Source: an uncultured Bacteroidales bacterium
Lineage (GTDB): Bacteria; Bacteroidota; Bacteroidia; Bacteroidales; B18-G4
Assembly (NCBI GenBank): GCA_964531985.1
Contig: CAZHFC010000007.1
Coordinates: forward strand, 21,194-85,193
Direction of reading: 5' to 3'
DNA: 64,000 bases
In this document: piece by piece, positions 1-55,101 of the stretch
How positions within the stretch are numbered: position 1 is the first letter of the stretch
Layout: each line of letters starts with the position of its first letter
Program-made: the position numbers and the translations under genes
Notes under the pieces: generated by a model
What the model saw: the letters and a program-made list of their open reading frames with translations, nothing else
Databases searched by the model: none
What the model was told of the DNA's origin: nothing

Positions 1-1
1 G

Positions 2-904
2 CTTGCCGAAGGATATCATGTTATTGCCCTGAAATTTCACCATTATGCTTCAACCATCCTCCGTCATAAAAATATTGAGTATCACGAATGTGATATCCGG
101 AAGGAAATAAATCCACGCTTGGCAGATGTTATTGCCGGCAAACCGGTCCATGCCCTGATCAATGCAGCCGCATTGCTCGGTAGTTCGGATTATCAGAAAA
201 ACTATGATGTTAATGCAAAAGGGGTGGAAAATCTTATCGGCTTTTGCAGGATCAACGGGATCAGGCGTTTTATACAGATCAGCAGTGTGGTGGTGCTCAA
301 GTCGTTCAAAGGCCCCTATGGAGAGACAAAGCTCCGGGGTCAGAAATTTGTGATTTCATCGGGTCTTGATTATACTGTTTTTATCCCTGCCATGATCCTG
401 GGCCCGGAAGGCCTGGGCATCAACCGCATTCTGAAAAATGTTTTCCGGTTCCCGTTTATCGTTCCACTGGTAGGTTATGGGAAACAAACCCAGCACCCGG
501 TTTTCGTAATTGACTTTGCAAAGTATATCGTAAAGTCGCTCAATTCACCTGCTGCCTCGGCGAAAGTCTATCAGATTGCAGGAAATGAAGTGATCCCTTT
601 TCGCGAACTGGTATCAATGGTCTTGAAAATACGTAAGAAAAAAAGGCTGTTTTTGCCTGTTCCACCGGCCCTTGTGAAGGTTCTTGGAAAAGGTTTCCAG
701 CGGTTTCAGAAAGTTCCTCTGTTCACAGCAGAACATGTAAAAGGTGTTTTGCAGAACTCAAAACTTGATACAAAACTGATCAGGGAAGATCTGGACTTTG
801 AGCCCACACCTCTGAAGGAAGCGCTTGAATACAGTCTTTCGGTGATCGGCCGGAACTGGGACGAATATTTGAAGCCCAGGGATGAGAAGATCATTGATAT
901 TTAG
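2..904 (+). CDS. NAD-dependent epimerase/dehydratase family protein (extended SDR), 5' end cut by window edge
   Basis: The frame of ORF 119..904 stays open back to nt 2 (LAEGYHVIALKFHH...), so the ATG at 119 is internal. YGETK matches the SDR YxxxK catalytic motif. Converges on the next gene and overlaps it by 14 nt. Confidence 0.7.
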   Translation, partial: LAEGYHVIALKFHHYASTILRHKNIEYHECDIRKEINPRLADVIAGKPVHALINAAALLGSSDYQKNYDVNAKGVENLIGFCRINGIRRFIQISSVVVLKSFKGPYGETKLRGQKFVISSGLDYTVFIPAMILGPEGLGINRILKNVFRFPFIVPLVGYGKQTQHPVFVIDFAKYIVKSLNSPAASAKVYQIAGNEVIPFRELVSMVLKIRKKKRLFLPVPPALVKVLGKGFQRFQKVPLFTAEHVKGVLQNSKLDTKLIREDLDFEPTPLKEALEYSLSVIGRNWDEYLKPRDEKIIDI

Positions 905-2747
905 GGTCGAAAAACTCAATTTTCAGGTCATCGATCCAGATGCTTTCAGTCCCTTTTTTAAACCACACATATACTTCGAGCTTATCGCCGGCGGATAAAA
1001 GTTCCGGTGTCATATAGTCGGCCCTGACCAGGTTCCACTGGTTCATCTGCAGCCCCACCGTATCGGCGTTCATGCTATAGCCTTTGTACTTATAGTTCTG
1101 GCTGCCGTGGCGGAAGGCGATAACCAGGGCGGCTTCGTTTTCCAGGGGGTCGGCAACGGGATAGATCCAGACGCTGGCCCTGACCCAGCCGTAATAGCTG
1201 TTGCTGATCTCATTGAAGGGCTCGCGGAAGGTTGGGGAGTATTCACGGCCGGGCTCCAGTCTGAACGACATCTTTCCGCTACGGGCGTAGGTGGTGTCGT
1301 AATACTGTTCCTCTCCCGGCTGAGGGGTCTCAAAAGCAAAATGCCGCAAGAGCTTCCTGTTGAAATCTTCTTCGTTTCCGAGTTTTTCCTGTGCCGTGAA
1401 CGGACGCTGCACCAGCATGTATTTCCGGTCTTCTTCGCTTATCTTCGTCTTGAAGAAAATCCGGCAGTAATAGTCTTTTGTCATTCGATAGCCGTCAAGG
1501 ATGCCGTTGTTGAGCTGCCATACCTGGAAAAGGTTGAGCACTGTGAAGAACAGCAGCAGGGCATATACCGCTATGCGGAAAGGCAGACGGCTTTTTTCCA
1601 CGGCGGCGATCAGTAGGGCAAGGGGGATGACCAGCAGGGCATAGAGCTCGATAAAGGCCCGCCAGCCATAGGCCACAAGGCTGGTAAAGCTGGCGATGAG
1701 ATAGGTATGCGCCAGGGTTACCAGCAAAACAGGCAGGAAGGCCTGCTTGTTCTTTTTATAGAGATACCAGAAGCCTGCCACAGCCAGGATCATAACCGGC
1801 GAATAGATAAACAGTCCTTTACGGAAACCGAACAACACATAATAAAAACGCGGGTTCAGCAGGTCGAGGGAGGAGCCGGGGTCATTGTAGGCATTGAAAA
1901 GCCAGCCCCCGGATGCCATCTTCCAGTATGCCAGCTGGGGCAGTACGGCAATGATGCCTGCCAGGACCAGGTACAGCAGGTGCAGGCGGTAGCGCCAAAG
2001 CAGCCCGATTTTATCAATGAGTGTTTGCCTGTTGTACACCCCCCAGAACACCGGTACGGCCAGCATGATCACCTCCGATATGCGTGAGATCACGGCCAGG
2101 CCGAGTACCAGGCCAAGCAGGATGGCGTGCACTGGCCGCCGGCTCTCATGCCAGCGCAGGCTCAGCCAGATAATGAGCACGTTCAGCGTGAAGGCATAAA
2201 CATGCGGGACATCGTTGCCGTAAGTGATGAAAAAGAAAAAGTTGGACGAAATACATAATATGGCCAGGGTGATGGCCGCCACGCGGTCGCTCACAAAACG
2301 CAGCAATACCTTCCGCAGGAAGACAAGCCCTACAATGGTGTAAAAGAGCCCGCAAAGGATGATGGCCCACTGGTAGGGATCCGAAAAGCCGTCGGCAAGG
2401 TCGATCTCGCTCAGGGAAGCATAGGCATGGCCTGCCAGGAAAAACGGCGACATCATGATGGCCATCCCGGGCGTGAAACGAATCACATTGGTGCCCATAT
2501 GGGTGGGCGCAAGCTGATAGAGCGTGGCAGTATTGTTATAGGTGGCATTGATCTCTTCGATCCAGCGCACATCCCTGATGCCCGGATCATCGTAAATGAA
2601 AGTGGCCGGAAGATAAAGGTAAAAACCAAAAGTGTCCCACGAAAGGATATTGTGCTGCGGGTTTCTGAGCTTGATCACCGAAATGGTCAGAATGATCAGC
2701 ACCAGCGTGATCAGCGATACAGGTGATTTAAACTGTTTGAAATCCAT
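891..2747 (-). CDS. Polytopic membrane protein, GT-C-like (ArnT/PMT-like) glycosyltransferase candidate with a C-terminal soluble beta-sandwich/CBM-like domain
   Basis: 618 aa with an ATG start. About 430 aa contain many hydrophobic helices, with an acidic first loop (SWDTFGFYLYLPATFIYDDPG). A roughly 190-aa hydrophilic tail ends ...ESIWIDDLKIEFF, typical of carbohydrate-binding modules. Lies 13 nt downstream of a GT2 gene. Confidence 0.5.
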   Translation of the reverse strand: MDFKQFKSPVSLITLVLIILTISVIKLRNPQHNILSWDTFGFYLYLPATFIYDDPGIRDVRWIEEINATYNNTATLYQLAPTHMGTNVIRFTPGMAIMMSPFFLAGHAYASLSEIDLADGFSDPYQWAIILCGLFYTIVGLVFLRKVLLRFVSDRVAAITLAILCISSNFFFFITYGNDVPHVYAFTLNVLIIWLSLRWHESRRPVHAILLGLVLGLAVISRISEVIMLAVPVFWGVYNRQTLIDKIGLLWRYRLHLLYLVLAGIIAVLPQLAYWKMASGGWLFNAYNDPGSSLDLLNPRFYYVLFGFRKGLFIYSPVMILAVAGFWYLYKKNKQAFLPVLLVTLAHTYLIASFTSLVAYGWRAFIELYALLVIPLALLIAAVEKSRLPFRIAVYALLLFFTVLNLFQVWQLNNGILDGYRMTKDYYCRIFFKTKISEEDRKYMLVQRPFTAQEKLGNEEDFNRKLLRHFAFETPQPGEEQYYDTTYARSGKMSFRLEPGREYSPTFREPFNEISNSYYGWVRASVWIYPVADPLENEAALVIAFRHGSQNYKYKGYSMNADTVGLQMNQWNLVRADYMTPELLSAGDKLEVYVWFKKGTESIWIDDLKIEFFDPKYQ

Positions 2748-2760: not shown

Positions 2761-3513
2761 TTATGGTTGACCGGGCTTTTTGCCGGGCTCTTTGAGGTAT
2801 TTCCTGCTCCAGATATTGTATTTCAGGATGCACCAGATGGCGCGGAAGCCGTCGCTGGCGCCAATCTTCTTGCCTTCGTCATAGGTCCTGCCGTAATAGG
2901 AAATGCCTACTTCATAGATCCGGATGCCCGGAAAACGGGAAATTTTGGCCGTAACCTCTGGCTCAAAACCGAAACGTCTTTCATGGAATCGGATCTTCTT
3001 CAGGTAATCGGCCCTGAACAGTTTATAACAGGTTTCCATATCGGACAGGTTCAGGTTGGTGAACATATTCGACAGGAAGGTGAGGAATTTGTTGCCGATG
3101 GAGTGCCAGAAGAAGAGGATACGGTGCGGTGTGCCACCCATGAAGCGTGAACCGTATACCACATCGGCCTGGCCGGCGATAACGGGCCTGAGCAGGATAT
3201 TGTATTCTTCCGGATCGTACTCCAGGTCGGCATCCTGGATGATGATATAATCGCCCGTGGCCTCTTCAATGCCCCGGTGAAGTGCAGCTCCCTTTCCCAT
3301 GTTGACAGGCTGTTCGAAAAACTTAATGTCATCTTCGGGATGCCTGCCGGTGTATTCCTTCACAACTTCCGCTGTTGCATCGGTGGAGCAGTCGTTTACG
3401 ATGATGATCTCCCGGGTGAACCCGCCGCTAAGCTTTACCGCAAGCACCTTGTCGAGGATCAGGTGGATGGTTTTTTCTTCATTGTAGGCAGGAATGATAA
3501 CAGAAAGCTTCAT
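2761..3513 (-). CDS. Glycosyltransferase family 2 (polyprenyl-phosphate sugar synthase-like, soluble type)
   Basis: [16 protein letters not shown]..., IIVNDCSTD and [15 protein letters not shown] (DxD) motifs. The track start at 3540 is a TTG; the ATG at 3513 gives the canonical GT2 N-terminus. Confidence 0.8.
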
Positions 3514-3594
3514 GGCCGCTGATTCGTGAATAAGTTTCAAATGTAAGAATTATCATGCGAATATAAGGAAGCTGCCGGGTGTTTGCCGAAAAAA

Positions 3595-5658
3595 TTATTC
3601 GGAGGGAGGGTGCTTTTTGGCTTTTAGCAGGTTGATGCCTTCTTCCACCAGCATATTCACAGTATTTTCCTTCATAAAGGATTCGATGGGCCATTCGATG
3701 CCGAATTCTTTATTCACATCCCGCTCGAGGCTTACGGCAGTGATGGAATCGAGCCCATAGGCCGATACGGCTTTGTCGGGGTCGATCTTCCCGGGGTCGA
3801 CCTTTAGTTTTTGCGATATCCAGTGGATCAGCCACTCGCGGAGGTACCCGGGCCGGAATCCTATCTCAGAGGCAAGTTCATCTGTTATGGCCGGCATCTT
3901 CCATGAAGCCACCATTTTAAGTTCATTTTCCTGCCAGGCTCTTTTCACGGCAAAGCGCTGGATCTTGCCACTGGATGTTTTTAAAATGCTGCCGGTACGG
4001 ATGAGCGACAATGCATGGGGCTGGATGCCGTATTCCGAAAAGATGGCCTGCCTGGCGGCTTCAAACACCTCATCGTGCTTGTCCGTATTCATGAAGGCGC
4101 GCTCTGTTTCCATCACCACCACGAGCTTTTCCCCCTCCCCGCTGTCGATGGAAAAGGCTGCGCTGGCATTCTTCCTGATCGCCGGGTGACAGCCCTCGGC
4201 GCAATGTTCTATGTCGTTGGGGAAGTAGTTCGCACCCCTGATGATGATCAGGTCTTTGCGGCGGCCGCTGATAAAGAGTTGACCGTGGCTGATGAAGCCC
4301 AGGTCGCCGGTGCGCAGCCAGGGCCCGTCATGGGTTCCGGCGATACGGGCATTGAAGGTTTCTTCCGTTTCCTGCGGCTTGTTCCAGTAGCCCTGGGCAA
4401 CGGAAGGGCCGCTGACCCATACCTCGCCAAGCATGCCGGCTGCTGAAGGTATTCTGGTAACGGGGTCGACAATGGCCACGCGCATGCCCAGCCAGGGGTA
4501 TCCGCAGGCGGTCAGCACACGGCTTTCCCTGCCTGAAGTGACGGAAAGCACCCTGTTCTCTTCCAGGGCCCTGGCATCGACCTCTGTGTACAGGGGTGCT
4601 GCCAGGTAATTGCCCCCGGTGACGATCAGCACCGATTCGGCCATGCCGTAACAGGGATAGAACTGTGCAGGCCTGAACCCCGAAGGCTTGAATTTTGCCG
4701 CAAACTCCTGCAGGGTTTCACGGCGTATCGGCTCGGCCCCGCAATACAGCGTACGCAACCCGCCAAGGTCAAACTGCGGGATGTCTTCATCCGCCACTTT
4801 TTCGATGCTGTAGTCGAAGGCAAAATTCGGACCGCCTCCGGTAGTGGCCCCGTAACGGCTCATGGACAGAAACCAGTTGGATGGATTTTTCAGGAAGCTG
4901 AGCGGCGGGATGATCACGTTGGAAGCACCCAGGTAGGCAGCCTGTATCAGGCAGCCGATCAGCCCCATGTCATGGAAGTTGGGGAGCCAGTTCACACCAA
5001 CCGAGTTTTCGTCAAAACCGAATGATTGCCTGATGCATTCCGAGTTATGGATGATGTTGGCATGGCTCACCATCACCCCGTTGGGGGTGCCCGTCGAACC
5101 TGAAGTGTATTGCAGCAAGGCAATATCGTTGCCCGATATGCCGGGGTCGGCCCATTTTTCCGCCAGGGATTCATCCATCTCCTCGTAAACCAGCATCTGC
5201 ATCCCTTCCGGGTAGCCTTCCGTTGAATGGTATTCCAGCAGTTCGGCATGGATGCCGGCGGTGCTGATGAGAAAGGCCGGGGATGAATCCTGAACGATCG
5301 ACCTGAAACGTTCGTTGGCCTTGTTCCTTTTTGGGGGATAGGCCGGCACGGCGATCATGCCGGCAAAGTGGCAGGCAAAAAAAGTCGTGATAAACTCAAT
5401 CCCCGTCGGGAATAACAGCAACACCCTGTCGCCCTTATTCCCCTTTTCCATGAGCACACAGGCTATGGCTTTGGCCCTGGCAACGAGGGCGGCATATGTG
5501 ATGCTGTCTTTTTCGTTCAGGCCGTCTTCAAGCAGGATGTAAACCACCTTGCCGGGCTGGTTCTTTTCGTGCTGCAGAAGCCGTTCTGCCATGGTGCCGG
5601 CCGGTAGAACGGTGCCCTCCATCGATGAGCCGAGATATTGCGGATAAGGTTTGTCCAT
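3595..5658 (-). CDS. Fatty acyl-AMP ligase (FAAL) fused to a C-terminal acyl/peptidyl carrier domain
   Basis: Adenylation motifs LQYTSGSTGTPNGV and GDLG. FAAL-type WLPNFHDMGLIG and AVPAYPPKRNK segments. The C-terminal 80 aa carries the phosphopantetheine site YGLDSITAVSL. Confidence 0.85.
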   Translation of the reverse strand: MDKPYPQYLGSSMEGTVLPAGTMAERLLQHEKNQPGKVVYILLEDGLNEKDSITYAALVARAKAIACVLMEKGNKGDRVLLLFPTGIEFITTFFACHFAGMIAVPAYPPKRNKANERFRSIVQDSSPAFLISTAGIHAELLEYHSTEGYPEGMQMLVYEEMDESLAEKWADPGISGNDIALLQYTSGSTGTPNGVMVSHANIIHNSECIRQSFGFDENSVGVNWLPNFHDMGLIGCLIQAAYLGASNVIIPPLSFLKNPSNWFLSMSRYGATTGGGPNFAFDYSIEKVADEDIPQFDLGGLRTLYCGAEPIRRETLQEFAAKFKPSGFRPAQFYPCYGMAESVLIVTGGNYLAAPLYTEVDARALEENRVLSVTSGRESRVLTACGYPWLGMRVAIVDPVTRIPSAAGMLGEVWVSGPSVAQGYWNKPQETEETFNARIAGTHDGPWLRTGDLGFISHGQLFISGRRKDLIIIRGANYFPNDIEHCAEGCHPAIRKNASAAFSIDSGEGEKLVVVMETERAFMNTDKHDEVFEAARQAIFSEYGIQPHALSLIRTGSILKTSSGKIQRFAVKRAWQENELKMVASWKMPAITDELASEIGFRPGYLREWLIHWISQKLKVDPGKIDPDKAVSAYGLDSITAVSLERDVNKEFGIEWPIESFMKENTVNMLVEEGINLLKAKKHPPSE

Positions 5659-5672: not shown

Positions 5673-7154
5673 TTAAGTTCCCTTCCCGGCATTTCCGATA
5701 CCTGCGAATATTTCGGGGAATACACACTTCACATCCAGTATCTCGGCCCTGCCTTCGAAGCAGAAATTGCGCATATGCATGTTGGAAGAGAATGCCCAGG
5801 CGGCGGTGGTGGCATTTTGGGTGAGTTTCAGCGTATTCAGGAATTTCTTTTTCAGTGTTTTTACATTATACAATCTTTCCCAGTTCTCATATACGGCTTC
5901 CTCAAAGGTTTCGGGGCTCATTCTTTGCGGCTTGTAAACAACCTCCGCATAATTGTACCTTTCCCAGTCGGCAGGATAATTGGTATAAAGCAGCCTGCCT
6001 TCGTCCCTTAACCTGTTATACAGGGCGGTGCCGGGCAGGGGCGTAAGGATGGATGCCTGCATGATGTCGATGTCGGAATTCAGGATATAGCTGGTCCGGT
6101 TGTACAATGTTTCCGGCGTATCCCTGTCGAGACCGAAGATAAAGGCCCCGATCACGGCAAGTTCATATTTGTGTAATTTCCGGTAAACTTCTTCGTAGCG
6201 GTCTACTCCCAGCCTGAGGTTAACCTTTTTGTTCATCTGCTCAAGCTGGTCGATCAGTTCCGATTCAATGCCGAGGAAGATCGTTTTGCATCCGCTTCTG
6301 GCAGCCCATTCGAGCAGTTCCTCGTCTTCGCCGATGTTCATGGAAGCCGATCCGGCCCAATGCTTTTGCACCCCGCTCCGGGCTACGCCCTTAAAGAAAT
6401 CCAGTGCGTGCTGGCGGGCGGCCTTGCTGTAGCCCACAAAATTGTCGTCGACAATGTAAACCCGGTCTTTCTGAAGGTTTATGAAGTCATCGACCGACCT
6501 TTCGACCGAGCGCAGCCTGTATTTGCTCCCGTTAAAGGTATGCACCGAGCAAAACTCACATTTCATGGGGCATCCGCGGGTGGTTTGCATGCTGCTGAAT
6601 TCATAGCCCGGGTGGAAAAGGTCCTGCCTGGCCGAAGGCGAATCAACGATGGAGGGCAGTTTCGGACGGTAAATGTCGCGCAGCCGGTTGTTCTCAACAT
6701 CCCTGATCACCTCCTCCCATATTCCTTCGGCTTCGCCAACCACTACGGAGTCGACGTAGCGCAGGGCTTCCTGTGGCAACATGGAGGCATGGATGCCGCC
6801 GATCACCGTCGGGATCTTGTTTTTTCTGTATTCCGTGGCAATCTCATAGCACCGGTTTACCGTGGCCGTCAGTGAGGTGAAGCCAACCAGGTCGGCATCC
6901 GTATATTCGAAAGGGGTAAAATTTTCGTCGATGATCTCCACTTCCCAGTTTGGTGGCGTGAGGGCCGCAATGATGCCCAGGGCGATGGGGGGATAGATGG
7001 AGCCCTTGTCGAGCATGAGCCCTTTCCGCCGGCTATTGACGGGGTTGACCAGAAGCAGCTTATATGATCTTTTCTTTTTGTTCACGCTTATCCCGGAATT
7101 GCGGGCGTTTTTACCTGAAAGGGCTTGCCAGCAACAAATCGCGGCTGTTTTCAT
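5673..7154 (-). CDS. Cobalamin (B12)-binding domain radical SAM protein, paralog 1 (DUF4070-type C-terminus)
   Basis: N-terminal B12-binding-like Rossmann segment (DLVGFTSLTA...VIGGIHASMLPQEA). CxxxCxxC cluster motif TTRGCPMKCEFCSVHTF. C-terminal TPLPGTALYNRLRDEGRL. The ATG at 7154 overlaps the upstream gene by 44 nt; a GTG at 7085 (VNKKKRSYKLLLVNP) aligns better with the paralog N-termini. Confidence 0.85.
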   Translation of the reverse strand: MKTAAICCWQALSGKNARNSGISVNKKKRSYKLLLVNPVNSRRKGLMLDKGSIYPPIALGIIAALTPPNWEVEIIDENFTPFEYTDADLVGFTSLTATVNRCYEIATEYRKNKIPTVIGGIHASMLPQEALRYVDSVVVGEAEGIWEEVIRDVENNRLRDIYRPKLPSIVDSPSARQDLFHPGYEFSSMQTTRGCPMKCEFCSVHTFNGSKYRLRSVERSVDDFINLQKDRVYIVDDNFVGYSKAARQHALDFFKGVARSGVQKHWAGSASMNIGEDEELLEWAARSGCKTIFLGIESELIDQLEQMNKKVNLRLGVDRYEEVYRKLHKYELAVIGAFIFGLDRDTPETLYNRTSYILNSDIDIMQASILTPLPGTALYNRLRDEGRLLYTNYPADWERYNYAEVVYKPQRMSPETFEEAVYENWERLYNVKTLKKKFLNTLKLTQNATTAAWAFSSNMHMRNFCFEGRAEILDVKCVFPEIFAGIGNAGKGT

Positions 7155-8529
7155 CCAGCCCGAAAATGTCTTCTATGTTCTTCCCCGGCCTTTCGCCCTC
7201 ATACACCATGTTGTGATATTGCAGGTTGGAACCATACGACCAGATGGCCGCCAGCGGGCTGCGGGTCTGTTTCAGCGTCCGCAAAAACTTTTTCTTCAAT
7301 ATGTGGTCGTTATACAGCGCCTCCCAGTTCTTTCTCATCTCCCTGGCAAAGACTTCCGCCGTCATATTCCTGTGTGCAAACACCATTTCAACAAAGTCGT
7401 ATTTCTGCCAGTCGGAAGGGAAATCACGGTGTGCCACCTTCCCTTCTTTCATCATCCTGTTGTATAGCCCGGTGCCGGGAAGCGGGGTGAGCACGGTGGC
7501 CTGTACGGCGTCGATACTGGCATTGTTGATGTACTCAGTGCGCTGTGCCATGGTTTCGGGCGTGTCGCTCTCAAGACCGTATATGAAGGCACCCAAAACG
7601 CTGATGCCGTATTTGTGGATCTTGTCAAAAACCGCTTCGTAATGGTCAATTCCGATGCGGATGTTAAGCTTTTTATTGGTTTCTTCCAGTTGCTCGATCC
7701 TTTCAGATTCGATGCCAAGCAGTACCATCACGCAGCCGGCCCGGGCAGCCAGGCTCAGCACTTCTTCATTGTTGGCAAAGTTCATGGAAGCCGAACAGAA
7801 CCACTGCTTTTTGATGCCCCTTTCGATCATACCCCGGAACAAGGCAATGGCGCGGCGTTCCGACCGTTTTCCATAGCCAATGAGGTTGTCGTCGACAAAA
7901 TAGATCTTTTCGTGCGGGATGCTTTCAAGCTCGTCAAGGACTTCCTCAACGGGCCTTTCGCGGTATTTGTCGCCGTTAAAGGTGTGTACCGAACAAAAAT
8001 CGCACATCATCGGGCAGCCGCGCGTTGTTTGTATGCTTGCAAACTGGTAGCTTTTATGAAACAGATGACGGGCCGGGTAAACGGCATTTTTAAAAGGAAG
8101 GAGTTTGCCCTTGTAAATGCTTTTCATTTTACCCTGCTCAAAGTCGCTGATCAGCTCCGCCCATACGCTTTCCGCCTCACCCGTAACCACCGTGTCGACA
8201 TATTGCCCGGCTTCCTGCGGCATCATCGACGCATGGATGCCCCCCAGCACCGTGGCAATTCCCTTTTCACGGTATACCGCCGCCAGTTCATAGGCCCTGG
8301 CCACCCCTGATGTGAGGGCGGTGATGCCTACCAGGTCGGCTTCACGGTAAGAGAAACGATCGAAATTCTCATCCAGGATCTCTACTTCCCAGTGCTCCGG
8401 CGTGAGCGCTGCCACAATGCCAAGCCCGATCGGGGGGTAGATCACATGGCTGTGAAGGATGAGACCCTGCCGCTTCGTGCTCAGCGGGTTGATGAGCAAA
8501 AGTTTTTTCCTGTTCCCTTTAGTTGACAT
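7111..8529 (-). CDS. Cobalamin (B12)-binding domain radical SAM protein, paralog 2
   Basis: Same architecture as paralog 1: DLVGITALTS...LGGIHASMMPQEA, TTRGCPMMCDFCSVHTF, TPLPGTGLYNRMMKEGKV. The track start at 8538 is a TTG; the ATG at 8529 (MSTKGNRKKLLLINP) is preferred. Confidence 0.85.
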   Translation of the reverse strand: MSTKGNRKKLLLINPLSTKRQGLILHSHVIYPPIGLGIVAALTPEHWEVEILDENFDRFSYREADLVGITALTSGVARAYELAAVYREKGIATVLGGIHASMMPQEAGQYVDTVVTGEAESVWAELISDFEQGKMKSIYKGKLLPFKNAVYPARHLFHKSYQFASIQTTRGCPMMCDFCSVHTFNGDKYRERPVEEVLDELESIPHEKIYFVDDNLIGYGKRSERRAIALFRGMIERGIKKQWFCSASMNFANNEEVLSLAARAGCVMVLLGIESERIEQLEETNKKLNIRIGIDHYEAVFDKIHKYGISVLGAFIYGLESDTPETMAQRTEYINNASIDAVQATVLTPLPGTGLYNRMMKEGKVAHRDFPSDWQKYDFVEMVFAHRNMTAEVFAREMRKNWEALYNDHILKKKFLRTLKQTRSPLAAIWSYGSNLQYHNMVYEGERPGKNIEDIFGLDENSRDLLLASPFR

Positions 8530-8795
8530 GCCCGCCAAAGTTAATCATATTATGTTTAACAAAGCCCCCGGACCCATACAGACTGCATACTTATATCTGT
8601 TTAAACCAATCGGTCAGTTGTTTGTTCAGTTAACGGGGTTTGAAAGTTTCGCGAAGCGATGAAACTGCTGCGATGCCCGCTTTGTCATGGTTTTATCTCC
8701 GGCACCGTACATGGCTGCTCCACATCCCGAAACCGTGAGAAGCGGTCATCCTGATAATTATTTTCCACTTAAATGGCTTTCAAACAGAAAAAACG

Positions 8796-8803
8796 TAATT
8801 TTG
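8796..8803 (+). promoter_or_regulatory. Candidate Bacteroidota -7 promoter box (TAATTTTG = TAnnTTTG) for the ACP-KASIII-SDR-GT2 unit
   Basis: Exact match to TAnnTTTG, 22 nt upstream of the ATG at 8826, inside the 296-nt divergent intergenic region. Confidence 0.4.
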
Positions 8804-8825
8804 CGCTAAACTGATCAAATTGAAA

Positions 8826-9068
8826 ATGATTGGCATCGAAGAATTCATTAAAAAGGTAGAAGAGGAGTTCGAGGACATGGAACCCGGTAAGCTGAAGCCC
8901 CATAGTGTGATCAGGGAACACTTTACCTGGGATTCGATCAGCGCGCTCATATTCATCGCACACGTGAATGTTGAATATGATGTGGTGATCACCGCCGATG
9001 ACCTGGTGAACTCCGAAACGGTGCAGGACCTTTATAACCTGGTTATGTCCAGGGCACAAGCTGCATAA
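8826..9068 (+). CDS. Stand-alone acyl carrier protein-like protein
   Basis: 80 aa, acidic, four-helix-sized, with candidate phosphopantetheine serine in FTWDSISALIF (DSx motif at the start of helix II). Ends 8 nt upstream of KASIII. The track start at 8820 is a TTG; the ATG is at 8826. Confidence 0.7.
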   Translation: MIGIEEFIKKVEEEFEDMEPGKLKPHSVIREHFTWDSISALIFIAHVNVEYDVVITADDLVNSETVQDLYNLVMSRAQAA

Positions 9069-9076
9069 TCCTCTAT

Positions 9077-10135
9077 ATGGCTATTTTCAGCATTCCTGAT
9101 ATCAGGCTTGCAGGTGTTGCCGCAAGCGTTCCCCGAAAGGAATATAATAACCGGGATTACGAATGGATTACTCCGCGGGAGCGGGAAGTGCTGATCAAAA
9201 CCGTCGGGGTTGAAAGGCGCCGGGTGGCGGAAGAAGGAATGACCACTTCGGACCTCTGCTATGAGGCAGCCCGGAAACTGATTTCAGGCCTTGGCTGGCA
9301 GGCCGGTGAGATCGATCTGCTGGTCTTCGTCAGCCAGTCGCGCGATTACCTCATCCCCGCCACGGCAGGCATACTGCAGGATCGCCTCGGGCTCCCCAAA
9401 ACATGCATGGCCTTCGACATCAGCCTTGGCTGCTCGGGTTACTTGTATGGCCTGTCGGTGATGGGCAGGATGATGAGCGGAGGGGCCATCCGCAAAGGCC
9501 TCCTGCTTGTCGGGGACGTATCCACGCAAAATACTTCTTATAAGGATAAAAGTACCTTCCCCCTCTTCGGCGATGCCGGAACGGCCACGGCCCTGGAATA
9601 TCAGGAAGGTGCAGGCCCCATGGACTTTAACCTGCAAACCGACGGATCGGGCTACCGGGCCATCATCATCCCCGACGGGGGTATCAGGAACCTCGCCGCC
9701 CGCGAACGTTCATTCGAGTATGAGGAGATTGCCGAGGGCATTATCAGGAACCGCTACCATATTGCCCTTGACGGGCTCGAGGTGTTCAACTTCTCCCTGC
9801 GCGAAGTGGCAGCCAACGTCAGGAGCCTGCTGCAGCATGCCGGTGCCGGCATCGACGACATCGATTTTTTTGTGATGCACCAGGCAAACCGGCTCATGAA
9901 TGAAACCATCAGGAAGCAACTGAAGATTGTCCCGGAAAAATATCCCTATTCGCTCCGCCTATACGGAAACACCAGCTCGGCCTCCATCCCGCTTACCTTC
10001 ATCACCCAGCTGGGAGTACCTCTGGGCTCGAAACGGCTGAGGTTGCTTTTGTCGGGCTTTGGGGTTGGACTTTCATGGGGCAGCGCACTGCTCACCACCG
10101 ACCATGTTTTTTGTCCTGAAATTATAGAAATGTAA
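9077..10135 (+). CDS. 3-oxoacyl-ACP synthase III (KASIII/FabH-like) condensing enzyme
   Basis: Cys-His-Asn triad contexts DISLGCSGYLYG, FVMHQANRLMNE and LYGNTSSASIP. 352 aa. Confidence 0.85.
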   Translation: MAIFSIPDIRLAGVAASVPRKEYNNRDYEWITPREREVLIKTVGVERRRVAEEGMTTSDLCYEAARKLISGLGWQAGEIDLLVFVSQSRDYLIPATAGILQDRLGLPKTCMAFDISLGCSGYLYGLSVMGRMMSGGAIRKGLLLVGDVSTQNTSYKDKSTFPLFGDAGTATALEYQEGAGPMDFNLQTDGSGYRAIIIPDGGIRNLAARERSFEYEEIAEGIIRNRYHIALDGLEVFNFSLREVAANVRSLLQHAGAGIDDIDFFVMHQANRLMNETIRKQLKIVPEKYPYSLRLYGNTSSASIPLTFITQLGVPLGSKRLRLLLSGFGVGLSWGSALLTTDHVFCPEIIEM

Positions 10136-10141
10136 AACCAT

Positions 10142-10894
10142 ATGTTACCCTTTTGCGATCTTACCGGAAAAACCGTGCTGGTTACCGGTGCCTCCTCGGG
10201 CATCGGGATGCAGGCAGCCATCAGCATCAGCAGGCATGGCGGAAAGCTCATCATTGCCGGACGGAACCGGGAAAAACTGGAAGAAACACGATCAAAACTG
10301 CAGGGCGACGGGCATCAGCTGTTTGCCGGCGACCTGACGGTCGAAGCGGAACTGGCTTCGCTGGCGGAGATGCTTCCCGGCCTCGACGGGCTGGTACACT
10401 GTGCCGGGGTTATCGGCCCCACACCGGCCAAATTCATCAGGGATGAGCATATCGATAAGATGTTCAGCATCAACTACCGCGTGCCCGTATTGCTCACCGC
10501 CGCCATCCTCAGCAGCAAGAAGCTGAACAGGAATGCCTCCGTCGTGCTGATGTCGTCGGTGGTTACGCGCTCACCCTATTTCGGCGGCAGTCTCTATGCC
10601 GGATCCAAGGGCGCCATCGAGACCTATGCCAAAACCCTTGCCCTGGAACTGGTTGAACGGGGCATCCGCGTAAATTGCCTTTCGCCGGGGCTGGTAAACA
10701 CTCCCATGATCACCGACCCCGCAAAGGAATCGAATCCGGCCATCGTTGACGACTCGCTGAAACGCTATATTGCAAAATATCCAATGGGAGTAGGCGAAGC
10801 CGAAGATGTTGCCAATGCCGTCATATTCCTGTTGTCGGATGAGGCACGCTGGATATCCGGTGCCAATATCGATATGGGCGCAGTGATCAGGTAA
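10142..10894 (+). CDS. SDR family oxidoreductase (FabG-like 3-oxoacyl reductase)
   Basis: TGASSGIG cofactor motif, catalytic YAGSKGA (YxxxK), NCLSPGLVNTPM. Starts 6 nt after KASIII. Confidence 0.85.
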   Translation: MLPFCDLTGKTVLVTGASSGIGMQAAISISRHGGKLIIAGRNREKLEETRSKLQGDGHQLFAGDLTVEAELASLAEMLPGLDGLVHCAGVIGPTPAKFIRDEHIDKMFSINYRVPVLLTAAILSSKKLNRNASVVLMSSVVTRSPYFGGSLYAGSKGAIETYAKTLALELVERGIRVNCLSPGLVNTPMITDPAKESNPAIVDDSLKRYIAKYPMGVGEAEDVANAVIFLLSDEARWISGANIDMGAVIR

Positions 10895-11009
10895 ACATCC
10901 GGGGTCAGGCAACGGTAGTTTGCCATTCTTTACGGATGCATCAAAAGATAATATTCTTCTCCATCACCCGAAATATTCTTATTTTTGTTTTAAACAATAC
11001 ATCGCAGCG

Positions 11010-11933
11010 ATGTCAAAACCCGGCTATTCCGTAGTTGTACCCGTTTATAACAGCGAAGAAACACTCAGGGAACTCTTTGAAAGGGCGACGGCCGTTTTTC
11101 AACGGCTCAATGCCACTTTCGAAATTATTTTCGTGGAAGACTGCGGAACCGACAATAGCTGGGAAGTGTTGAAGGAACTGAAGAACGCGCATCCCGGAGA
11201 GGTTACCGCCATAAGGCTGCACCGTAATTACGGGCAGCATAACGCCACCATTTGCGGATTGGGTTTTGCCCGGGCCGACAGGGTCATCACCATGGATGAT
11301 GACCTGCAGCATCCGCCCGAAGAGATCCTGAAACTGGTTGAACGCTTTGATGAAGGCGATACCGATATCGTTTACGGCGTTTTTTCCCGGAAACGGCATT
11401 CGAAACTCCGGAACATAGGCAGCAATTCCGTAAAAAAAACCTCCCGGATGCTCCTGAAAGGTACCGGAAAAGGATCTTCCTTCAGATTGATCAAAAAGGA
11501 GATCATCGACAAGCTGCTGCAAAATATCATCCATTTTGTCTTTATCGACCAGTTGTTGCTCTGGCATACCAACGATTTTGCCTTCGTGGAGGTTGAACAT
11601 CACCCCAGGCGGATTAAAAAATCGGGATATACGGCCAAAAAGCTGTTTATGCTGGTAACCGACCTGACCTATTTCTATACGAACATCCCATTAAAGATCA
11701 TGGTATACGGCGGCCTGCTGATGTCGATGGTGTTTTTCCTGTTCGGTCTGCGTTTCTTATTGCAAAAATGGCTTTTTAATGTTACGGTGCCGGGCTATAC
11801 CTCTACCATCGTTACCATCCTTTTCAGTACGGGGATCATCGTGTTCAGCCTGGGTATCATTGGCGGTTATCTCAGCCGCATTTATATGGTGCAGAGCAAG
11901 AAACCACCTTTTACCATCAAGAAGATCTTATAA
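11010..11933 (+). CDS. Glycosyltransferase family 2, ArnC/GtrB-like polyprenyl-phosphate glycosyltransferase with two C-terminal TM helices
   Basis: YSVVVPVYNSEETL, FVEDCGTDNS, TMDDDLQHPPEE. C-terminal hydrophobic segments (IMVYGGLLMSMVFFLFGL and IVTILFSTGIIVFSLGIIGGYL). The track start at 10920 is a TTG; the ATG at 11010 gives the canonical N-terminus. Confidence 0.8.
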   Translation: MSKPGYSVVVPVYNSEETLRELFERATAVFQRLNATFEIIFVEDCGTDNSWEVLKELKNAHPGEVTAIRLHRNYGQHNATICGLGFARADRVITMDDDLQHPPEEILKLVERFDEGDTDIVYGVFSRKRHSKLRNIGSNSVKKTSRMLLKGTGKGSSFRLIKKEIIDKLLQNIIHFVFIDQLLLWHTNDFAFVEVEHHPRRIKKSGYTAKKLFMLVTDLTYFYTNIPLKIMVYGGLLMSMVFFLFGLRFLLQKWLFNVTVPGYTSTIVTILFSTGIIVFSLGIIGGYLSRIYMVQSKKPPFTIKKIL

Positions 11934-13136
11934 TTCTTTTTTATACACCGGTTTCCATCCCGTTCGGCAGCTGTTGCCGCTTTTTTGCGACATTTGTTTC
12001 ATCCGTCCGTCGAGTTCACGTAGTTTTTTCCTGTTGAAAATGCCCAGGTAGAAGCGGCCTACCGCCAGGGGTGCTTTGCTGAGGATGGTCATGCGCAGGC
12101 GATAGGGGAATTTGTCGATCATCCATGTAGCCATGTAGAGAATGCCCGCAAAGGCTTTGCCGGGCAGGCAACGGATATGGGCCCGGACCCCCGGTTTTGG
12201 ATATGCTTTTTCATGCCCGGTAAGGGCTGCATAGGGTCCGGCACAGGCATCGGCCACCCGGATCTCCGAAGGTTTCAGCTCTTTCTTCCATAAGCCGGTC
12301 CTGCCGGTATTGATCTTCTTTAACAGGCTGGAATGGTATTTCAGGATGAGTTCGTTCGGGTAGATCTTCAGCACTTCGCTGCTTTTTTTGTAGAAATCGA
12401 AAGGAACGGGGCTGAAAGGGATGCCGATAAACCTGCAGAGTTCCGAAAATACCTCCTCCGGCCTGGAAACAAGGTCTTCGTAACGGATTTCCTTATGCGT
12501 GCCCGGATACCTGCCGGCAGCCTGCCTGAATTTTTTGACAAAATAACGCCATTTGCTGGTGGTAACGGAAATAAATGGCAATTCAAAGTCGACGTTCCTG
12601 ATCGAAACAAAATTATCGCGGTAGTCTCTGACGATATGTATGAACCTGGCTTCGGGGAAGATTTTCAGCAGCCTTTCCGTATAGATCGTGTAACCGGGAT
12701 TTTTATCACCCAGTGCCAGGATTACTCCGTGTCTGAATATTGACCGGTATTCATGATAGACAAGCTTGCAAAGTGTTCCGTAACTATAATCTCCCCGGCA
12801 TTGCATAAGGCTGTGATAAAGCTTGTTCCGGTCGAGGGGCCAAAGGTCGAAACGCCATTGGCGGAAAAGGTCTTCATAAAATGATTGCAGTTGTTTTTTC
12901 GACCAGTTGGTGATTTTCCCGTATTTTGGATAAAGGTTGATGATCAGCTGGCATTCGGGGGGTACCATCACGTTGGGATGTGCATCGAAGAGGGTACGAA
13001 GCAGGGTTGTTCCTGAACGCGGCCTGCCAACTACAAAAAACATTGGGATTTCCTTCAGTTGCCTGGCACTGAGATGCCGCTGCCGTTGCAGCAGAAGGAT
13101 TTTATTCTGGTCTTTTTCTGTAAAGAAATGATTCAT
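11928..13136 (-). CDS. Sulfotransferase family protein (PAPS-dependent type)
   Basis: 5'-PSB loop FFVVGRPRSGTTLLRTLF, 3'-PB-like IHIVRDYRDNFVS. The track start at 13187 is a TTG inside a hairpin; the ATG at 13136 (MNHFFTEKDQ) is preferred. Converges on the GT2 gene with a 6-nt overlap. Confidence 0.75.
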   Translation of the reverse strand: MNHFFTEKDQNKILLLQRQRHLSARQLKEIPMFFVVGRPRSGTTLLRTLFDAHPNVMVPPECQLIINLYPKYGKITNWSKKQLQSFYEDLFRQWRFDLWPLDRNKLYHSLMQCRGDYSYGTLCKLVYHEYRSIFRHGVILALGDKNPGYTIYTERLLKIFPEARFIHIVRDYRDNFVSIRNVDFELPFISVTTSKWRYFVKKFRQAAGRYPGTHKEIRYEDLVSRPEEVFSELCRFIGIPFSPVPFDFYKKSSEVLKIYPNELILKYHSSLLKKINTGRTGLWKKELKPSEIRVADACAGPYAALTGHEKAYPKPGVRAHIRCLPGKAFAGILYMATWMIDKFPYRLRMTILSKAPLAVGRFYLGIFNRKKLRELDGRMKQMSQKSGNSCRTGWKPVYKKEL

Positions 13137-13154
13137 GAATGTGCAAAAATAGGG

Positions 13155-13195
13155 AAAAAGGGTTGCCAGCCTTATTAGGGTTGGCAACCCTTTTT
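13155..13195 (-). other. Strong stem-loop at the flippase/sulfotransferase junction, with the flippase stop codon in its loop
   Basis: AAAAAGGGTTGCCA (13155-13168) is perfectly complementary to TGGCAACCCTTTTT (13182-13195). Three further pairs extend the stem (gcc/ggt), leaving a 7-nt loop that contains the TAA stop (13175-13177). Confidence 0.6.
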
Positions 13196-14488
13196 TAAAA
13201 CCCTGTCAACCAACAGTTTAATTTCTTTAAAATCGCCCCGTTTTACCAGGAGAATATCCCGTACCGGAACTTTGAGAATACGGGAATACATGGCCAGGTA
13301 GCCGATGGATCCGGCCGTATAGCTCACGTTGGTGGCCATGGCGGCCCCAGCACCTCCGTAGGAGGGTATCCACCAAAGGTTCAGCAGGATGTTCAGGACC
13401 AGGGCAGGCAAAAAAACGTAGAGGGTTATCTCCGGTCTCCCCAGCCCGGCCAGGTGGCCGCTGAGGATGCGGAACATCACCACCATGATGATGCCGGGCA
13501 GGATCAGTTGTATGATGCGGATGCTTTCGTGATAAGCCTGCCCGAAGATGAGGGGAACCAGAAAGGGTACCAGGAAGAACATGGCAACGGCCAGGAGGAG
13601 GCTGAAAAGGAACGACAGCCTCAGCAATACCCCCGTTGTTTCTTTCATCTCGGCCTGGTCGCGCGCATTCGCCGTGCGGCTGAAAACCACGATGCCCACT
13701 GCCAGCGGTAGTTGCCAAAGTTGTTCCGCCACCGATGCCCCGATGGAATAGATACCCACCTCGGCCGTGTCGCGCAGCTTTTCGATAAGCAGGATGTCGA
13801 TACGGTAGTTCAGTTGCAGGATGAAAAACGAAACAGAGAACAAAATGCCCAGCCTCAGCAGGCTGATGATGATCTTTTTATGGAAGCGGAGACGGATACG
13901 GAACGACTTCCCGAGAAGGAACAGTCCGTACACGGCTACCATTGCCGCTGAAGCAAGAAAGGCGACAACCGCACCGATGATCCCCGCTTTGAGCACCCAA
14001 ACCAGTAAAATGATGAGCAGCAGGTTGAGGGCGTTGGTGATCCAGTTCATCTGATTGGCTTTGCTGATCTCATCATTTCCGAGAAAAACGCCGCCGAAAT
14101 AGATAATGGCCAGCCGTCCGGGAATGACCATCAGCACCAGCCCGATCATCAGGGGAGTAAACGAAGGGCCGTCGTAGATCCAGTAGGCGAGGGCTGAGAT
14201 AACGATGCCTAATGCCGATGCAATGAGCAGCAATACGATCACGGAAGACACAAGCTGGTCGTGGTTGTGTTTTTTCTTGCCCACATGAAAAATGGCCGAT
14301 CCCCTGATGCCGAGGTTGGTCAGGCTGACCACGATCATTGGAATGATCACCAGTGCCATGAAGATACCGTACTCCTCAGGGCCCAGCAGGCGTGCCAGCA
14401 CTATGCTGGCCGCAAATCCCGCCAGGATAGAAAAAACATTGCTGTTAAAAACACCGATCACATCGCGCGAAAAGCGTCGTTTGGCCAT
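13175..14488 (-). CDS. MOP-superfamily polysaccharide/oligosaccharide flippase (Wzx-like)
   Basis: 437 aa with about 12 hydrophobic helices. The N-terminus FNSNVFSILAGFAASIVLARLLGPEEYG is typical of polysaccharide biosynthesis (Polysacc_synt) exporters. ATG start. Confidence 0.75.
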   Translation of the reverse strand: MAKRRFSRDVIGVFNSNVFSILAGFAASIVLARLLGPEEYGIFMALVIIPMIVVSLTNLGIRGSAIFHVGKKKHNHDQLVSSVIVLLLIASALGIVISALAYWIYDGPSFTPLMIGLVLMVIPGRLAIIYFGGVFLGNDEISKANQMNWITNALNLLLIILLVWVLKAGIIGAVVAFLASAAMVAVYGLFLLGKSFRIRLRFHKKIIISLLRLGILFSVSFFILQLNYRIDILLIEKLRDTAEVGIYSIGASVAEQLWQLPLAVGIVVFSRTANARDQAEMKETTGVLLRLSFLFSLLLAVAMFFLVPFLVPLIFGQAYHESIRIIQLILPGIIMVVMFRILSGHLAGLGRPEITLYVFLPALVLNILLNLWWIPSYGGAGAAMATNVSYTAGSIGYLAMYSRILKVPVRDILLVKRGDFKEIKLLVDRVLKKGCQP

Positions 14489-14619
14489 GGCATCAGGGTT
14501 AAATTGTTGATTGCGGCATCAATCTGTTTTTCGGCCGGTAAACGGCCCTTTTGCCGAATAAGCGGAACTGTACGGGCATCCTTGCATTGTTTTAATTATC
14601 CTTATTTACGTTCCTTTAT

Positions 14620-16002: not shown

Positions 16003-16024
16003 CTGCACCTGTGCTGAAGTATTG

Positions 16025-16032: not shown

Positions 16033-16081
16033 TTATTTTTAAGCAAGCAGGTGGCGCGGAAGCTTGCACGCAAGGAATGCT

Positions 16082-16089
16082 TACTTTTG
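16082..16089 (+). promoter_or_regulatory. Candidate -7 promoter box (TACTTTTG) for the GNAT gene
   Basis: Exact TAnnTTTG, 24 nt upstream of the ATG at 16114. Sits back-to-back with the minus-strand box 49 nt away. Confidence 0.4.
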
Positions 16090-16113
16090 CAGCACCATCC
16101 ACCTTTTAGTGTT

Positions 16114-21877: not shown

Positions 21878-21989
21878 AAAGTTTATGGCATGATAAAGCA
21901 GGATTACGGGCGGAAAGAGGAATAATGATCCCGATATTGATTATATTTATCAACCGAATATATCATTACAAAACAAAAAGTCCTGAAAA

Positions 21990-39587: not shown

Positions 39588-39634
39588 ATGATGGTTTAAG
39601 GGATGTGATTTTTATAAACCTTTGAGGATTGACT

Positions 39635-41391: not shown

Positions 41392-41482
41392 TGCGTACAT
41401 ACAGTAACGGCCCGGGTAAAAACCTCTGAGGGTACAGGAACAGACGGATCGGGGCCAAAGAACAGGATTGAATAAAAAGATT

Positions 41483-43228: not shown

Positions 43229-43329
43229 GAACCCCATGAAATATTTACCGGTAGAAATTCGCAAACACAGCCATGTCATGAACATCCGCAGAGAGGTTCC
43301 GTCATATCGCTAAAAAAAAGATATTAACG

Positions 43330-45694: not shown

Positions 45695-45750
45695 TATCAT
45701 GAAAGCCAATATGCTATCTTTAACGCGCCTGCAGCCATAAAGCCGAGCAA

Positions 45751-55006: not shown

Positions 55007-55080
55007 GGGTATCACGGCATGGCACGGGCCTGAACAAGCAGAAGCCCGGGCCTGCCCGCTTGCTGCGGCCATCATCCCGG

Positions 55081-55101
55081 TATGATTGCGCGATTGAACG
55101 A
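55081..55101 (+). repeat. Right copy of the 21-nt direct repeat, with one extra GATTGAGC octamer unit
   Basis: TATGATTGCGCGATTGAACGA followed by TTGAGCGAT, giving GATTGCGC-GATTGAAC-GATTGAGC-GAT. Confidence 0.75.

Follow-up and report, generated by a model that had tools for sequence, protein, structure and literature searches.

A fatty acyl-AMP ligase with a fused carrier domain, and a second free-standing carrier, in a conserved Bacteroidota gene cassette with paralogous B12 radical SAM enzymes

We investigated a gene cluster in a 64,000-nucleotide stretch of DNA from an uncultured Bacteroidales bacterium (GTDB lineage B18-G4; assembly GCA_964531985.1, contig CAZHFC010000007.1, positions 21,194 to 85,193 of the forward strand). 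The whole of this stretch is called the window below, and positions are counted from its first letter. The cluster includes two divergent operons. [quoted passage not shown] The plus-strand operon encodes a free-standing ACP, a 3-ketoacyl-ACP synthase III (KASIII), a short-chain dehydrogenase (SDR) and an ArnC-like GT2.

Pfam, NCBIfam and solved structures all yielded matches to the FAAL-ACP protein. Residues 31-425 matched the Pfam AMP-binding domain (E 2.5e-65) and residues 469-583 a DIP2-like C-terminal adenylation subdomain, and the protein is modelled with the N- and C-terminal subdomains of the ANL-superfamily adenylation fold. FAAL families of NCBIfam scored 339-405 bits, led by PRK05850 (405), PRK12476 (362), FadD32 (362) and FadD21 (345), against 110-181 bits for FadD-type CoA-ligase families (PRK06187 181, FadD 110). 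The nonribosomal peptide and polyketide synthase model PRK05691 (4334 positions) gave 510 bits through its N-terminal ~640 profile positions. FAAL-ACP scored below every curated NCBIfam cutoff, and is therefore not an equivalog of any named FAAL. By sequence (phmmer), its closest solved structures were three 572-aa FAAL-domain entries (E ~1e-149), followed by the Legionella FAAL, FadD23, FadD32, the E. coli FAAL and FAAL28, with CoA ligases (FadD13) appearing only from E 1e-21. Identity to the mycobacterial, E. coli and Legionella FAALs was 27-36%.

FAALs carry a specific insertion of about 20 or more residues in the N-terminal domain that is not found in acyl-CoA ligases (PMC11837247, PMC8460268). 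We measured it as the number of residues between motifs A5 (YGxxE) and A6 (GExx), using FadD of E. coli MG1655 as the reference ligase. The spacing from YGMAE337 to GEVW411 was 69 residues in FAAL-ACP and 43 in FadD, compared with 70 in the FAAL of cyanobacterial olefin synthase (Ols), 68 in the Legionella FAAL (LpFAAL) and 69 in 7wua, and fell between 67 and 74 in all 119 homologues that have both motifs. The extra ~26 residues (approximately residues 356-383; 4510..4593, minus strand) lie opposite gaps in FadD in the alignment, and were modelled by AlphaFold2 as a strand (357-361), a helix (362-366) and a second strand (379-384). When the C-terminal 260 residues were used as the query, FAALs aligned from the first residues, and CoA ligases and nonribosomal peptide synthetase adenylation domains only past the insertion. 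In a Foldseek search of the PDB with the AlphaFold2 model (mean pLDDT 87.4, built on 70 homologues), the best 29 matches were all FAALs, and the top match was 7r7e, the FAAL domain of Synechococcus Ols, which is 43% identical and superposes with TM 0.95 on the target (rmsd 2.2 A).

Further residues bear on the CoA pocket and on the chain. In the E. coli enzyme (EcFAAL), the canonical CoA pocket is blocked by the bulky residues W224, M231 and F279 and by helix 252-258, with a proline-lined alternative pocket (PMC8460268). Residues W224, P226, M231, F255, P259 and F279 of FAAL-ACP were invariant in 70 of 70 homologues, and a short helix was modelled at 252-257; taken as putative counterparts of the EcFAAL features, they are consistent with a blocked CoA pocket in FAAL-ACP without proving one. 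Ala245 of FAAL-ACP aligns with the residue mutated in the A229I structure of the Ols FAAL (7r7g), suggesting from this alignment that the activated chain is probably long.

Thus the gene encodes a genuine FAAL that carries a fused carrier domain, and enzymes of this type are known. This agrees with an earlier note on this DNA, made from the sequence alone, which had read it as a FAAL rather than an acyl-CoA synthetase and had proposed the insertion as the point to check. An ordinary acyl-CoA synthetase, with a C-terminal domain that is not a functional carrier, would fit the annotation given by JGI to homologues (acyl-CoA synthetase/AMP-acid ligase II/acyl carrier protein), but we consider it barely credible, given the insertion, the FadD-type models trailing the FAAL models by more than 200 bits, the exclusively FAAL top structural matches and an invariant, structurally well placed carrier serine.

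That serine, Ser638 (codon 3745-3747), is the predicted phosphopantetheine site of the fused carrier domain (residues 603-682; 3613..3852, minus strand). Residues 609-672 matched Pfam PP-binding at 42.4 bits (E 8.6e-11; gathering score 20.8), and the YGLDSITAVSL motif picked out in the earlier note is present. AlphaFold2 modelled a four-helix domain (603-618, 638-652, 658-662 and 667-682), preceded by a low-confidence linker at 592-599. Since all 70 homologues keep Asp637-Ser638 and Ser638 stands at the start of helix II (638-652), we take the fused carrier domain to be real.

The free-standing ACP (80 aa; 8826..9068, plus strand; Ser37 codon 8934-8936), which the same note had also reported, is a divergent but real second carrier protein. 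It matched PP-binding at 26.0 bits, again above the 20.8 gathering score, over residues 37-75 (the C-terminal half) only, and PP-binding_2 was below its cutoff. Aligned with E. coli AcpP, the serine of its WDSIS motif falls on Ser36, and it also falls on this motif in the small orthologous genes of related loci L001, L002 and L089; Asp36-Ser37 was invariant in 50 of 50 homologues (61-86% identity). Its AlphaFold2 model (pLDDT 80.3) is a helical bundle with Ser37 immediately before helix 38-50, and Foldseek gave nothing but acyl or peptidyl carrier proteins among its best 50 PDB matches (TM 0.61-0.78). Neither condition that the earlier note had named as refuting its reading holds, since the FAAL insertion is there and the serine of each carrier is recognised.

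Between the two operons lies a divergent spacer of 296 bp (8530..8825; GC 0.43). The gene across it from the free ACP is rSAM_B, with its start at 8529; the earlier placement of the free ACP across a divergent promoter is confirmed, with the refinement that it is divergent from rSAM_B and not from FAAL-ACP. The spacer contains one TAnnTTTG (Bacteroidetes -7-type) motif in each direction, against a window average of 0.6/kb, and the one at 8796 sits 22 nt ahead of the ATG of the free ACP. We found no Rfam match in the spacer, and Rfam and tRNA scans of the whole window were empty.

Directly downstream of the free ACP is the KASIII gene (352 aa; 9077..10135, plus strand; Pfam ACP_syn_III and ACP_syn_III_C), a FabH-like ketosynthase. 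It scored 229 bits against PRK09352, slightly under the cutoff of 249, and its best solved structure was 4efi (E 5e-70). DpsC-like acyltransferases carry a Ser-His-Asp triad (PMC12308425). A DpsC/CerJ-type acyltransferase was rejected, as the window protein and all of seven related KASIII sequences have the condensing triad Cys112/His244/Asn274 (E. coli numbering). The next gene encodes a FabG-like SDR, a putative ketoreductase (250 aa; 10142..10894, plus strand; Pfam adh_short and KR), that is 30% identical to E. coli FabG and retains the TGASSGIG and YxxxK motifs. KASIII is the sole condensing enzyme found in the cluster, and no type I multidomain protein in which a ketosynthase (KS) domain is fused to an acyltransferase (AT) domain was found. 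The description of the locus as following polyketide synthase (PKS)-like logic without any PKS is therefore misleading, since a discrete ketosynthase and a discrete ketoreductase are both present.

At three positions taken to be CoA contacts in E. coli FabH, KASIII differs (V for W32, T for R36 and K for R151); this is a weak lead, and no more, towards an acyl-ACP primer. We also considered an analogy with OleABCD (thiolase, SDR, AMP-ligase and alpha/beta hydrolase) and rejected it: the ligase is not of the beta-lactone synthetase (OleC) type but a FAAL-ACP, OleA structures fit KASIII far worse than FabH-like ones (E 1e-22 vs 5e-70), and no such hydrolase was found in the window.

We identified three radical SAM genes in the cluster, all matching Pfam B12-binding and Radical_SAM. 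rSAM_A (5673..7154, minus strand; CPMKCEFC motif) ends 14 nt upstream of FAAL-ACP. Its start is ambiguous between an ATG at 7154 (493 aa, overlapping rSAM_B by 44 nt) and a GTG at 7085; the latter is favoured because homologues are ~464 aa long and align from residue ~26. rSAM_B (7111..8529, minus strand) heads the minus-strand operon, and its ATG at 8529 gives 472 aa, matching the related locus L003. rSAM_C (14620..16008, minus strand) lies apart from them. The three are paralogues at about 50% identity (50% for rSAM_B and 51% for rSAM_C against rSAM_A), each with a CxxxCxxC motif. Orthologues at 70-82% identity were found across many Bacteroidales metagenome-assembled genomes (MAGs), a conservation exceeding that of FAAL-ACP. 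The nearest named families (BchE, HpnJ, HpnR, ApyD, AprD4 and the ladderane type) were all far under cutoff; assignment to the ladderane-type lipid B12 radical SAM family TIGR04072 (71.5 and 78.7 bits, cutoff 360) and to the HpnJ, HpnR and BchE equivalogs was accordingly rejected. No solved structure was close to any of the three.

The remaining genes of the cluster encode transferases and membrane proteins. The ArnC-like GT2 (10920..11933, plus strand) scored 157 bits against ArnC (PRK10714) and has two C-terminal hydrophobic segments; in its orthologues, which also lie next to the SDR in related loci, the start is called further in, giving 307 aa. It is likely a polyprenyl-phosphate glycosyltransferase. 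A sulfotransferase of the Sulfotransfer_3 family (11928..13187, minus strand; E 1e-31) matched TPST1 (E 1.1e-12) and, over residues 49-266, the CurM sulfotransferase domain 4gbm (E 2.6e-12), with which it shares PRSGxTLLR and PPE motifs; its likeness to tyrosylprotein sulfotransferases and to the CurM/Ols domains is about equal. It is followed by a Wzx/MurJ-type flippase-like membrane protein with multiple hydrophobic segments (13175..14488, minus strand; Polysacc_synt, Polysacc_synt_3, MatE). Beyond rSAM_C lies a PseH-like GNAT N-acyltransferase (16051..16779, plus strand; Acetyltransf_3), a candidate off-loading enzyme. Its best structure was PseH (4xpk, E 8e-10), a nucleotide-amino-sugar N-acetyltransferase, and it is kept alongside the ACP/KASIII genes in 11 metagenome loci. 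Downstream of FAAL-ACP in the same operon are the GT2 (2761..3540, minus strand; Glycos_transf_2, E 2.9e-35) and, as the last gene, a 618-aa multi-pass membrane protein (891..2747, minus strand). The latter is a GT-C (PMT_2/ArnT-like) candidate, with PMT_2 at 22.6 bits under a cutoff of 26.1, ~9-11 hydrophobic segments in residues 1-410 and a soluble C-terminal part. An NAD-dependent epimerase/dehydratase (1..904, plus strand; Pfam Epimerase) is truncated by the left edge of the window, with its frame open from base 2.

The earlier note had taken the two carriers to mean two separately tethered intermediates, for example a primer and an extender or acceptor. Primer and extender are the most economical reading of them, although two carriers alone do not show that they are coupled. 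We see about an even chance that FAAL-ACP is a self-loading starter enzyme, whose primer is joined by KASIII to a malonyl extender on the free ACP, the SDR then reducing the product. The FAAL domain would adenylate a free fatty acid, probably long-chain, and the acyl group would move to the phosphopantetheine on Ser638 of its own carrier, bypassing CoA. From the acyl-S-ACP the chain would then pass to the active-site cysteine of KASIII, whose gene lies on the other side of the divergent promoter, and KASIII would condense this primer decarboxylatively with malonyl on Ser37 of the free ACP, presumably loaded by housekeeping FabD. The SDR would reduce the condensation product to a 3-hydroxyacyl-ACP. 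Candidates for its tailoring and off-loading are the PseH-like GNAT (by N-acylation of an amino sugar), the sulfotransferase, the ArnC-like GT2, the flippase, the GT-C-like protein and the three radical SAM paralogues. The end product may be a modified, possibly sulfated, envelope glycolipid. The primer and extender roles are suggested because the free ACP directly precedes a KASIII with a Cys-His-Asn triad and a FabG-like SDR, because the cluster yielded no condensing enzyme other than this KASIII, and because an acyl-activating enzyme again adjoins the KASIII genes in three related loci (L103, L088 and L158). We place the hand-off no higher than even because, as follows, the genes form separable modules.

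We compared the window with contigs bearing homologues and with 79 metagenome loci retrieved by rSAM alignment, each scored by tblastn with the window proteins. FAAL-ACP was 96% identical on contigs of an uncultured Bacteroidales MAG (GCA_964404735.1) and of other metagenomes, one of them labelled MLSed. These loci (L003-L005) have the same gene order, with a complete epimerase of 322 aa, and in them the cluster extends leftwards past the equivalent of the window edge, where, besides that epimerase, it encodes a pair of LPG_synthase_TM proteins, an FrhB-like protein, a methyltransferase and further GT2s. All close homologues came from Bacteroidales or other Bacteroidota MAGs, and none was seen from a cultured strain. 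The best 120 database matches were 451-726 aa long, nearly all with the two-domain architecture. A scan of a genome collection with generic FAAL motifs, which is uninformative on co-occurrence of the cassette, placed FAAL or FAAL-ACP relatives, among the matches listed, mostly in Cyanobacteria, Acidobacteriota, Planctomycetota and Myxococcota.

The divergent two-operon order was kept in L002, L003-L005, L089 and L093, at 48-96% FAAL-ACP identity, and the order rSAM_B, rSAM_A, FAAL-ACP in L002, L007, L089, L091, L093 and L094. Across the comparison set we identified two modules. Module 1 consists of the free ACP, KASIII, SDR, ArnC-like GT2, GNAT, sulfotransferase and flippase with one to four radical SAM paralogues. 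Module 2 consists of FAAL-ACP, a second KASIII (KASIIIb) with additional matches to Pfam models of type III PKS, a ~670-aa membrane protein of the TPR/PMT_2 kind and an alpha/beta hydrolase. The last three adjoin FAAL-ACP in L001, L002, L007, L087, L088, L089, L091 and L093, and look like a self-contained second module. None of the three is in the window, in which tblastn over the 64 kb found neither a second ketosynthase of the KASIIIb type nor a counterpart of the hydrolase.

A single FAAL-ACP is flanked by both modules in L002, L089 and L093, and also in L001, in which the ACP and radical SAM genes are present and the KASIII and SDR of module 1 are absent. The shorter contigs of L007 and L091 show rSAM_B, rSAM_A and FAAL-ACP with module 2 after them, and lack the ACP/KASIII part. 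L088 has two FAAL-ACPs, one next to each module. A distinct FAAL-ACP clade is directly divergent from the KASIII, SDR and GT2 genes in L103 and L088, and no free ACP was detected in L103. In L158, module 1 occurs without FAAL-ACP, and a plain AMP-binding ligase of 592 aa without a carrier domain (12745-14523, minus strand) ends the radical SAM operon in its place, which suggests that different acyl-activating enzymes have been swapped in beside the same KASIII module. The window lineage is alone in its FAAL-ACP clade in having the GT2 and the 618-aa GT-C-like gene in place of module 2. We tried to assign the window FAAL-ACP to a module 1 or a module 2 subfamily by identity, and rejected this, as copies from outside its clade were all 40-45% identical.

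Several observations weigh against this model of two coupled carriers. Elsewhere in the clade of the window protein, KASIIIb, the TPR/PMT_2 protein and the hydrolase directly follow FAAL-ACP, and the KASIIIb module may be its ancestral partner. FAAL-ACP accompanies module 2 alone, without module 1, in L087; L107 and L124 have module 1 but, within 10 kb of it, no FAAL-ACP; and L064, from the same MAG as L004, bears a lone FAAL-ACP paralogue (9956-12004, 41% identity). Coupling is thus not obligatory. FabH-type enzymes normally use acyl-CoA primers, so that an acyl-ACP primer is an assumption here. In addition, no phosphopantetheinyl transferase was recognised among the window ORFs scanned, the window yielded no malonyl transferase or thioesterase, and every protein fell short of the curated NCBIfam cutoffs.

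The same facts give some room to a rather unlikely alternative, that the operons serve two independent branches of one envelope-glycolipid pathway, with no hand-off between carriers. In this case the ACP, KASIII and SDR would build a short 3-hydroxyacyl group from an acyl-CoA such as acetyl-CoA for transfer by the GNAT to an amino sugar, and FAAL-ACP would bring a long fatty acyl chain to another acceptor. This would account for the loci with the ACP, KASIII, SDR, GT2, GNAT, sulfotransferase and radical SAM genes only (L107, L124, L158), for those in which FAAL-ACP stands only with KASIIIb, the TPR protein and the hydrolase (L087) or alone (L064), and for a GNAT that resembles a nucleotide-amino-sugar N-acetyltransferase and is a conserved member of the module. 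It leaves FAAL-ACP with no partner, however, as no other acyltransferase or condensing enzyme that could unload it was found in the window; FAAL-ACP also shares its operon with rSAM_A and rSAM_B, which are genes of the free-ACP module, and in L103 it directly adjoins KASIII where no free ACP was detected.

A different weight could fall on the radical SAM enzymes. B12 radical SAM enzymes such as ThnK and TokK can act on pantetheine-linked substrates, and the conserved order of rSAM_B, rSAM_A and FAAL-ACP across six loci, with 14 nt between the last two genes in the window, would suit a fused ACP that is mainly a scaffold, on which, ahead of any later step, rSAM_A and rSAM_B modify the tethered acyl chain, C-methylation at unactivated carbons being one example. 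The free ACP would then carry the malonyl extender only, so that this variant is compatible with the primer and extender roles, with the key chemistry moved to the fused carrier. We consider it improbable, as the same paralogues join the free-ACP module where FAAL-ACP is missing (L107, L124, L158), occur with just the sulfotransferase and flippase in L095 and L097, and have relatives at ~50% identity that are singletons in unrelated contexts (L109, L114, L164). The contexts of the distant homologues in L095, L109, L114 and L164 were unrelated or uninformative as to substrate, and with the named families BchE, HpnJ, HpnR and AprD4 so far below cutoff, sugar substrates are as plausible as a lipid chain. 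The broader idea that the cassette makes a fatty-acid-derived (ketoacyl) lipid, whose chain on either or both carriers is remodelled by these enzymes (methylation or C-C bond formation at unactivated carbons would be examples) and which is then sulfated and glycosylated, is unlikely, and on present evidence it has no advantage over sugar modification.

The least probable of the readings that accept a FAAL is a strict dissociated version of the Ols/CurM pathway, in which a beta-hydroxyacyl-ACP would be sulfated and then undergo decarboxylative elimination to a terminal alkene. The parts are largely to hand, with FAAL-ACP, a ketosynthase, a ketoreductase, a second ACP and a sulfotransferase of the CurM/Ols Pfam family all encoded, and the Ols FAAL domain is the closest to the one here. 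Yet no thioesterase or alpha/beta hydrolase was recognised in the cluster, and a sulfotransferase without a thioesterase predicts sulfated products rather than olefins (PMC11730487). The sulfotransferase resembles tyrosylprotein sulfotransferases as much as it does the CurM domain, and travels with the flippase and radical SAM genes where the carrier genes are absent (L095, L097); the glycosyltransferases and flippase indicate a glycoconjugate. We hold an alkene product to be very unlikely.

Comparison with known systems nevertheless draws on Ols. In that system, a FAAL-ACP, encoded as a separate ORF in some strains, feeds a line of KS, AT, ketoreductase (KR), ACP, sulfotransferase (ST) and thioesterase (TE) domains (PMC11837247, PMC11730487). 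The proposed two-carrier logic is that of the Ols loading and extension modules, which likewise use two ACPs; here it would be built from discrete, type II-like proteins. The Ols of Picosynechococcus/Synechococcus PCC 7002 and CurM resemble the window in the FAAL domain (7r7e-g being the closest solved structures, E 1e-149), in a loading ACP fused to the FAAL, in a second ACP, predicted here to serve one round of KS/KR extension, and in a Sulfotransfer_3-type ST at the locus. They differ in that the window has a discrete FabH-like KASIII in place of a type I KS-AT, all its parts as separate proteins and no TE, and adds three B12 radical SAM enzymes, a GNAT, glycosyltransferases and a flippase; its host is an anaerobic Bacteroidales rather than a cyanobacterium, and its product is probably no alkene.

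Stand-alone FAAL-ACP didomains are known in HapA (hapalosin), NocH (nocuolin A) and AmbG (ambruticin) (PMC11837247). They share with the window protein the two-domain architecture and the presumed role of adenylating a fatty acid and offering it as an acyl-S-ACP to a downstream ketosynthase, which for NocH is the discrete KS NocG. In contrast, they feed type I PKS or nonribosomal peptide lines or a head-to-head KS, and the sole candidate partner in the window, within a glycolipid or polysaccharide-type locus, is a FabH-like KASIII that has a dedicated ACP. FadD32 (with Pks13), FAAL28/FadD28, FadD23 and the E. coli and Legionella FAALs have the ANL fold, the FAAL insertion and the WLPxxHDMGL and PNF motifs in common with FAAL-ACP, but consist of a single domain and act in trans on the carrier that they load. 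The Ftp system of Myxococcus xanthus reportedly makes alkylresorcinols and alkylpyrones, its FAAL-loaded acyl-ACP directly priming a small thiolase-fold condensing enzyme with no CoA intermediate. Related Bacteroidota loci resemble it in pairing FAAL-ACP with a KASIII that matches type III PKS models. The window differs in lacking that second enzyme and in having a FabH-like KASIII followed by a ketoreductase, implying one reduced extension rather than cyclisation. The components of Ftp (FAAL, ACP and type III PKS) are listed in PMC11837247.

FAAL-ACP didomains and pathways with loading and extension carriers are thus already established (PMC11837247), and a FAAL-ACP accompanied by a second carrier is not in itself unusual. 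Taken alone, the window protein is one further member of a well-described class, and its value lies in its context. We found no description of this gene combination in the literature searched, and the unusual part is a conserved, uncharacterised Bacteroidota cassette with paralogous B12 radical SAM enzymes. In many MAGs of uncultured anaerobic Bacteroidota, this cassette combines CoA-independent fatty-acid entry and a discrete one-round KASIII/KR pair on a dedicated ACP with two to four B12 radical SAM enzymes, a sulfotransferase, a PseH-like acyltransferase, a polyprenyl-phosphate glycosyltransferase, a flippase and a GT-C export route. Were the hand-off true, it would offer a simple dissociated model of Ols loading logic that could be reconstituted from small proteins. 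Were the radical SAM enzymes to act on the tethered chain, they would form a new class of radical SAM lipid chemistry in uncultured anaerobic Bacteroidales. A possible outcome is the recognition of sulfated or branched lipids hitherto overlooked in soda-lake and sediment Bacteroidales.

We additionally noted features outside these operons. Close to its cluster, the window encodes a histidine kinase (Y_Y_Y) together with a LytTR regulator (18938-22739), and the lone paralogue of L064 is directly downstream of a LytTR two-component system (histidine kinase and response regulator), near ComEC and LpxB; a recurring regulatory link between such two-component systems and FAAL-ACP is possible. Other glycan genes of the window lie outside the cluster: an initiating sugar transferase (Bac_transf) beside a DegT-type aminotransferase (34759-36569, minus strand), and a GT1 with a Wzy_C/O-antigen-ligase-like protein (44423-47034, plus strand), the latter pair adjoined by an ABC_transp_aux/DUF4340 group (40645-44388). 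A SAM hydroxide adenosyltransferase (SAM_HAT_N, SAM_HAT_C; 39629-40411, plus strand) belongs to a family related to fluorinase and chlorinase enzymes. An ORF of 1152 aa (48593-52051, plus strand) has PPDK_N in its second half as its sole domain. A low-GC stretch (54001-58000; 0.42-0.43 vs ~0.50 elsewhere), beside an ECF-type sigma factor (53872-54387), contains an ORF without a Pfam match (54377-55006), a metallophosphoesterase, a pyrophosphatase and a CNNM/CBS protein. Finally, an 858-aa ORF without a Pfam match (61315-63891, minus strand) occupies the GC-richest part of the window (0.55-0.56).

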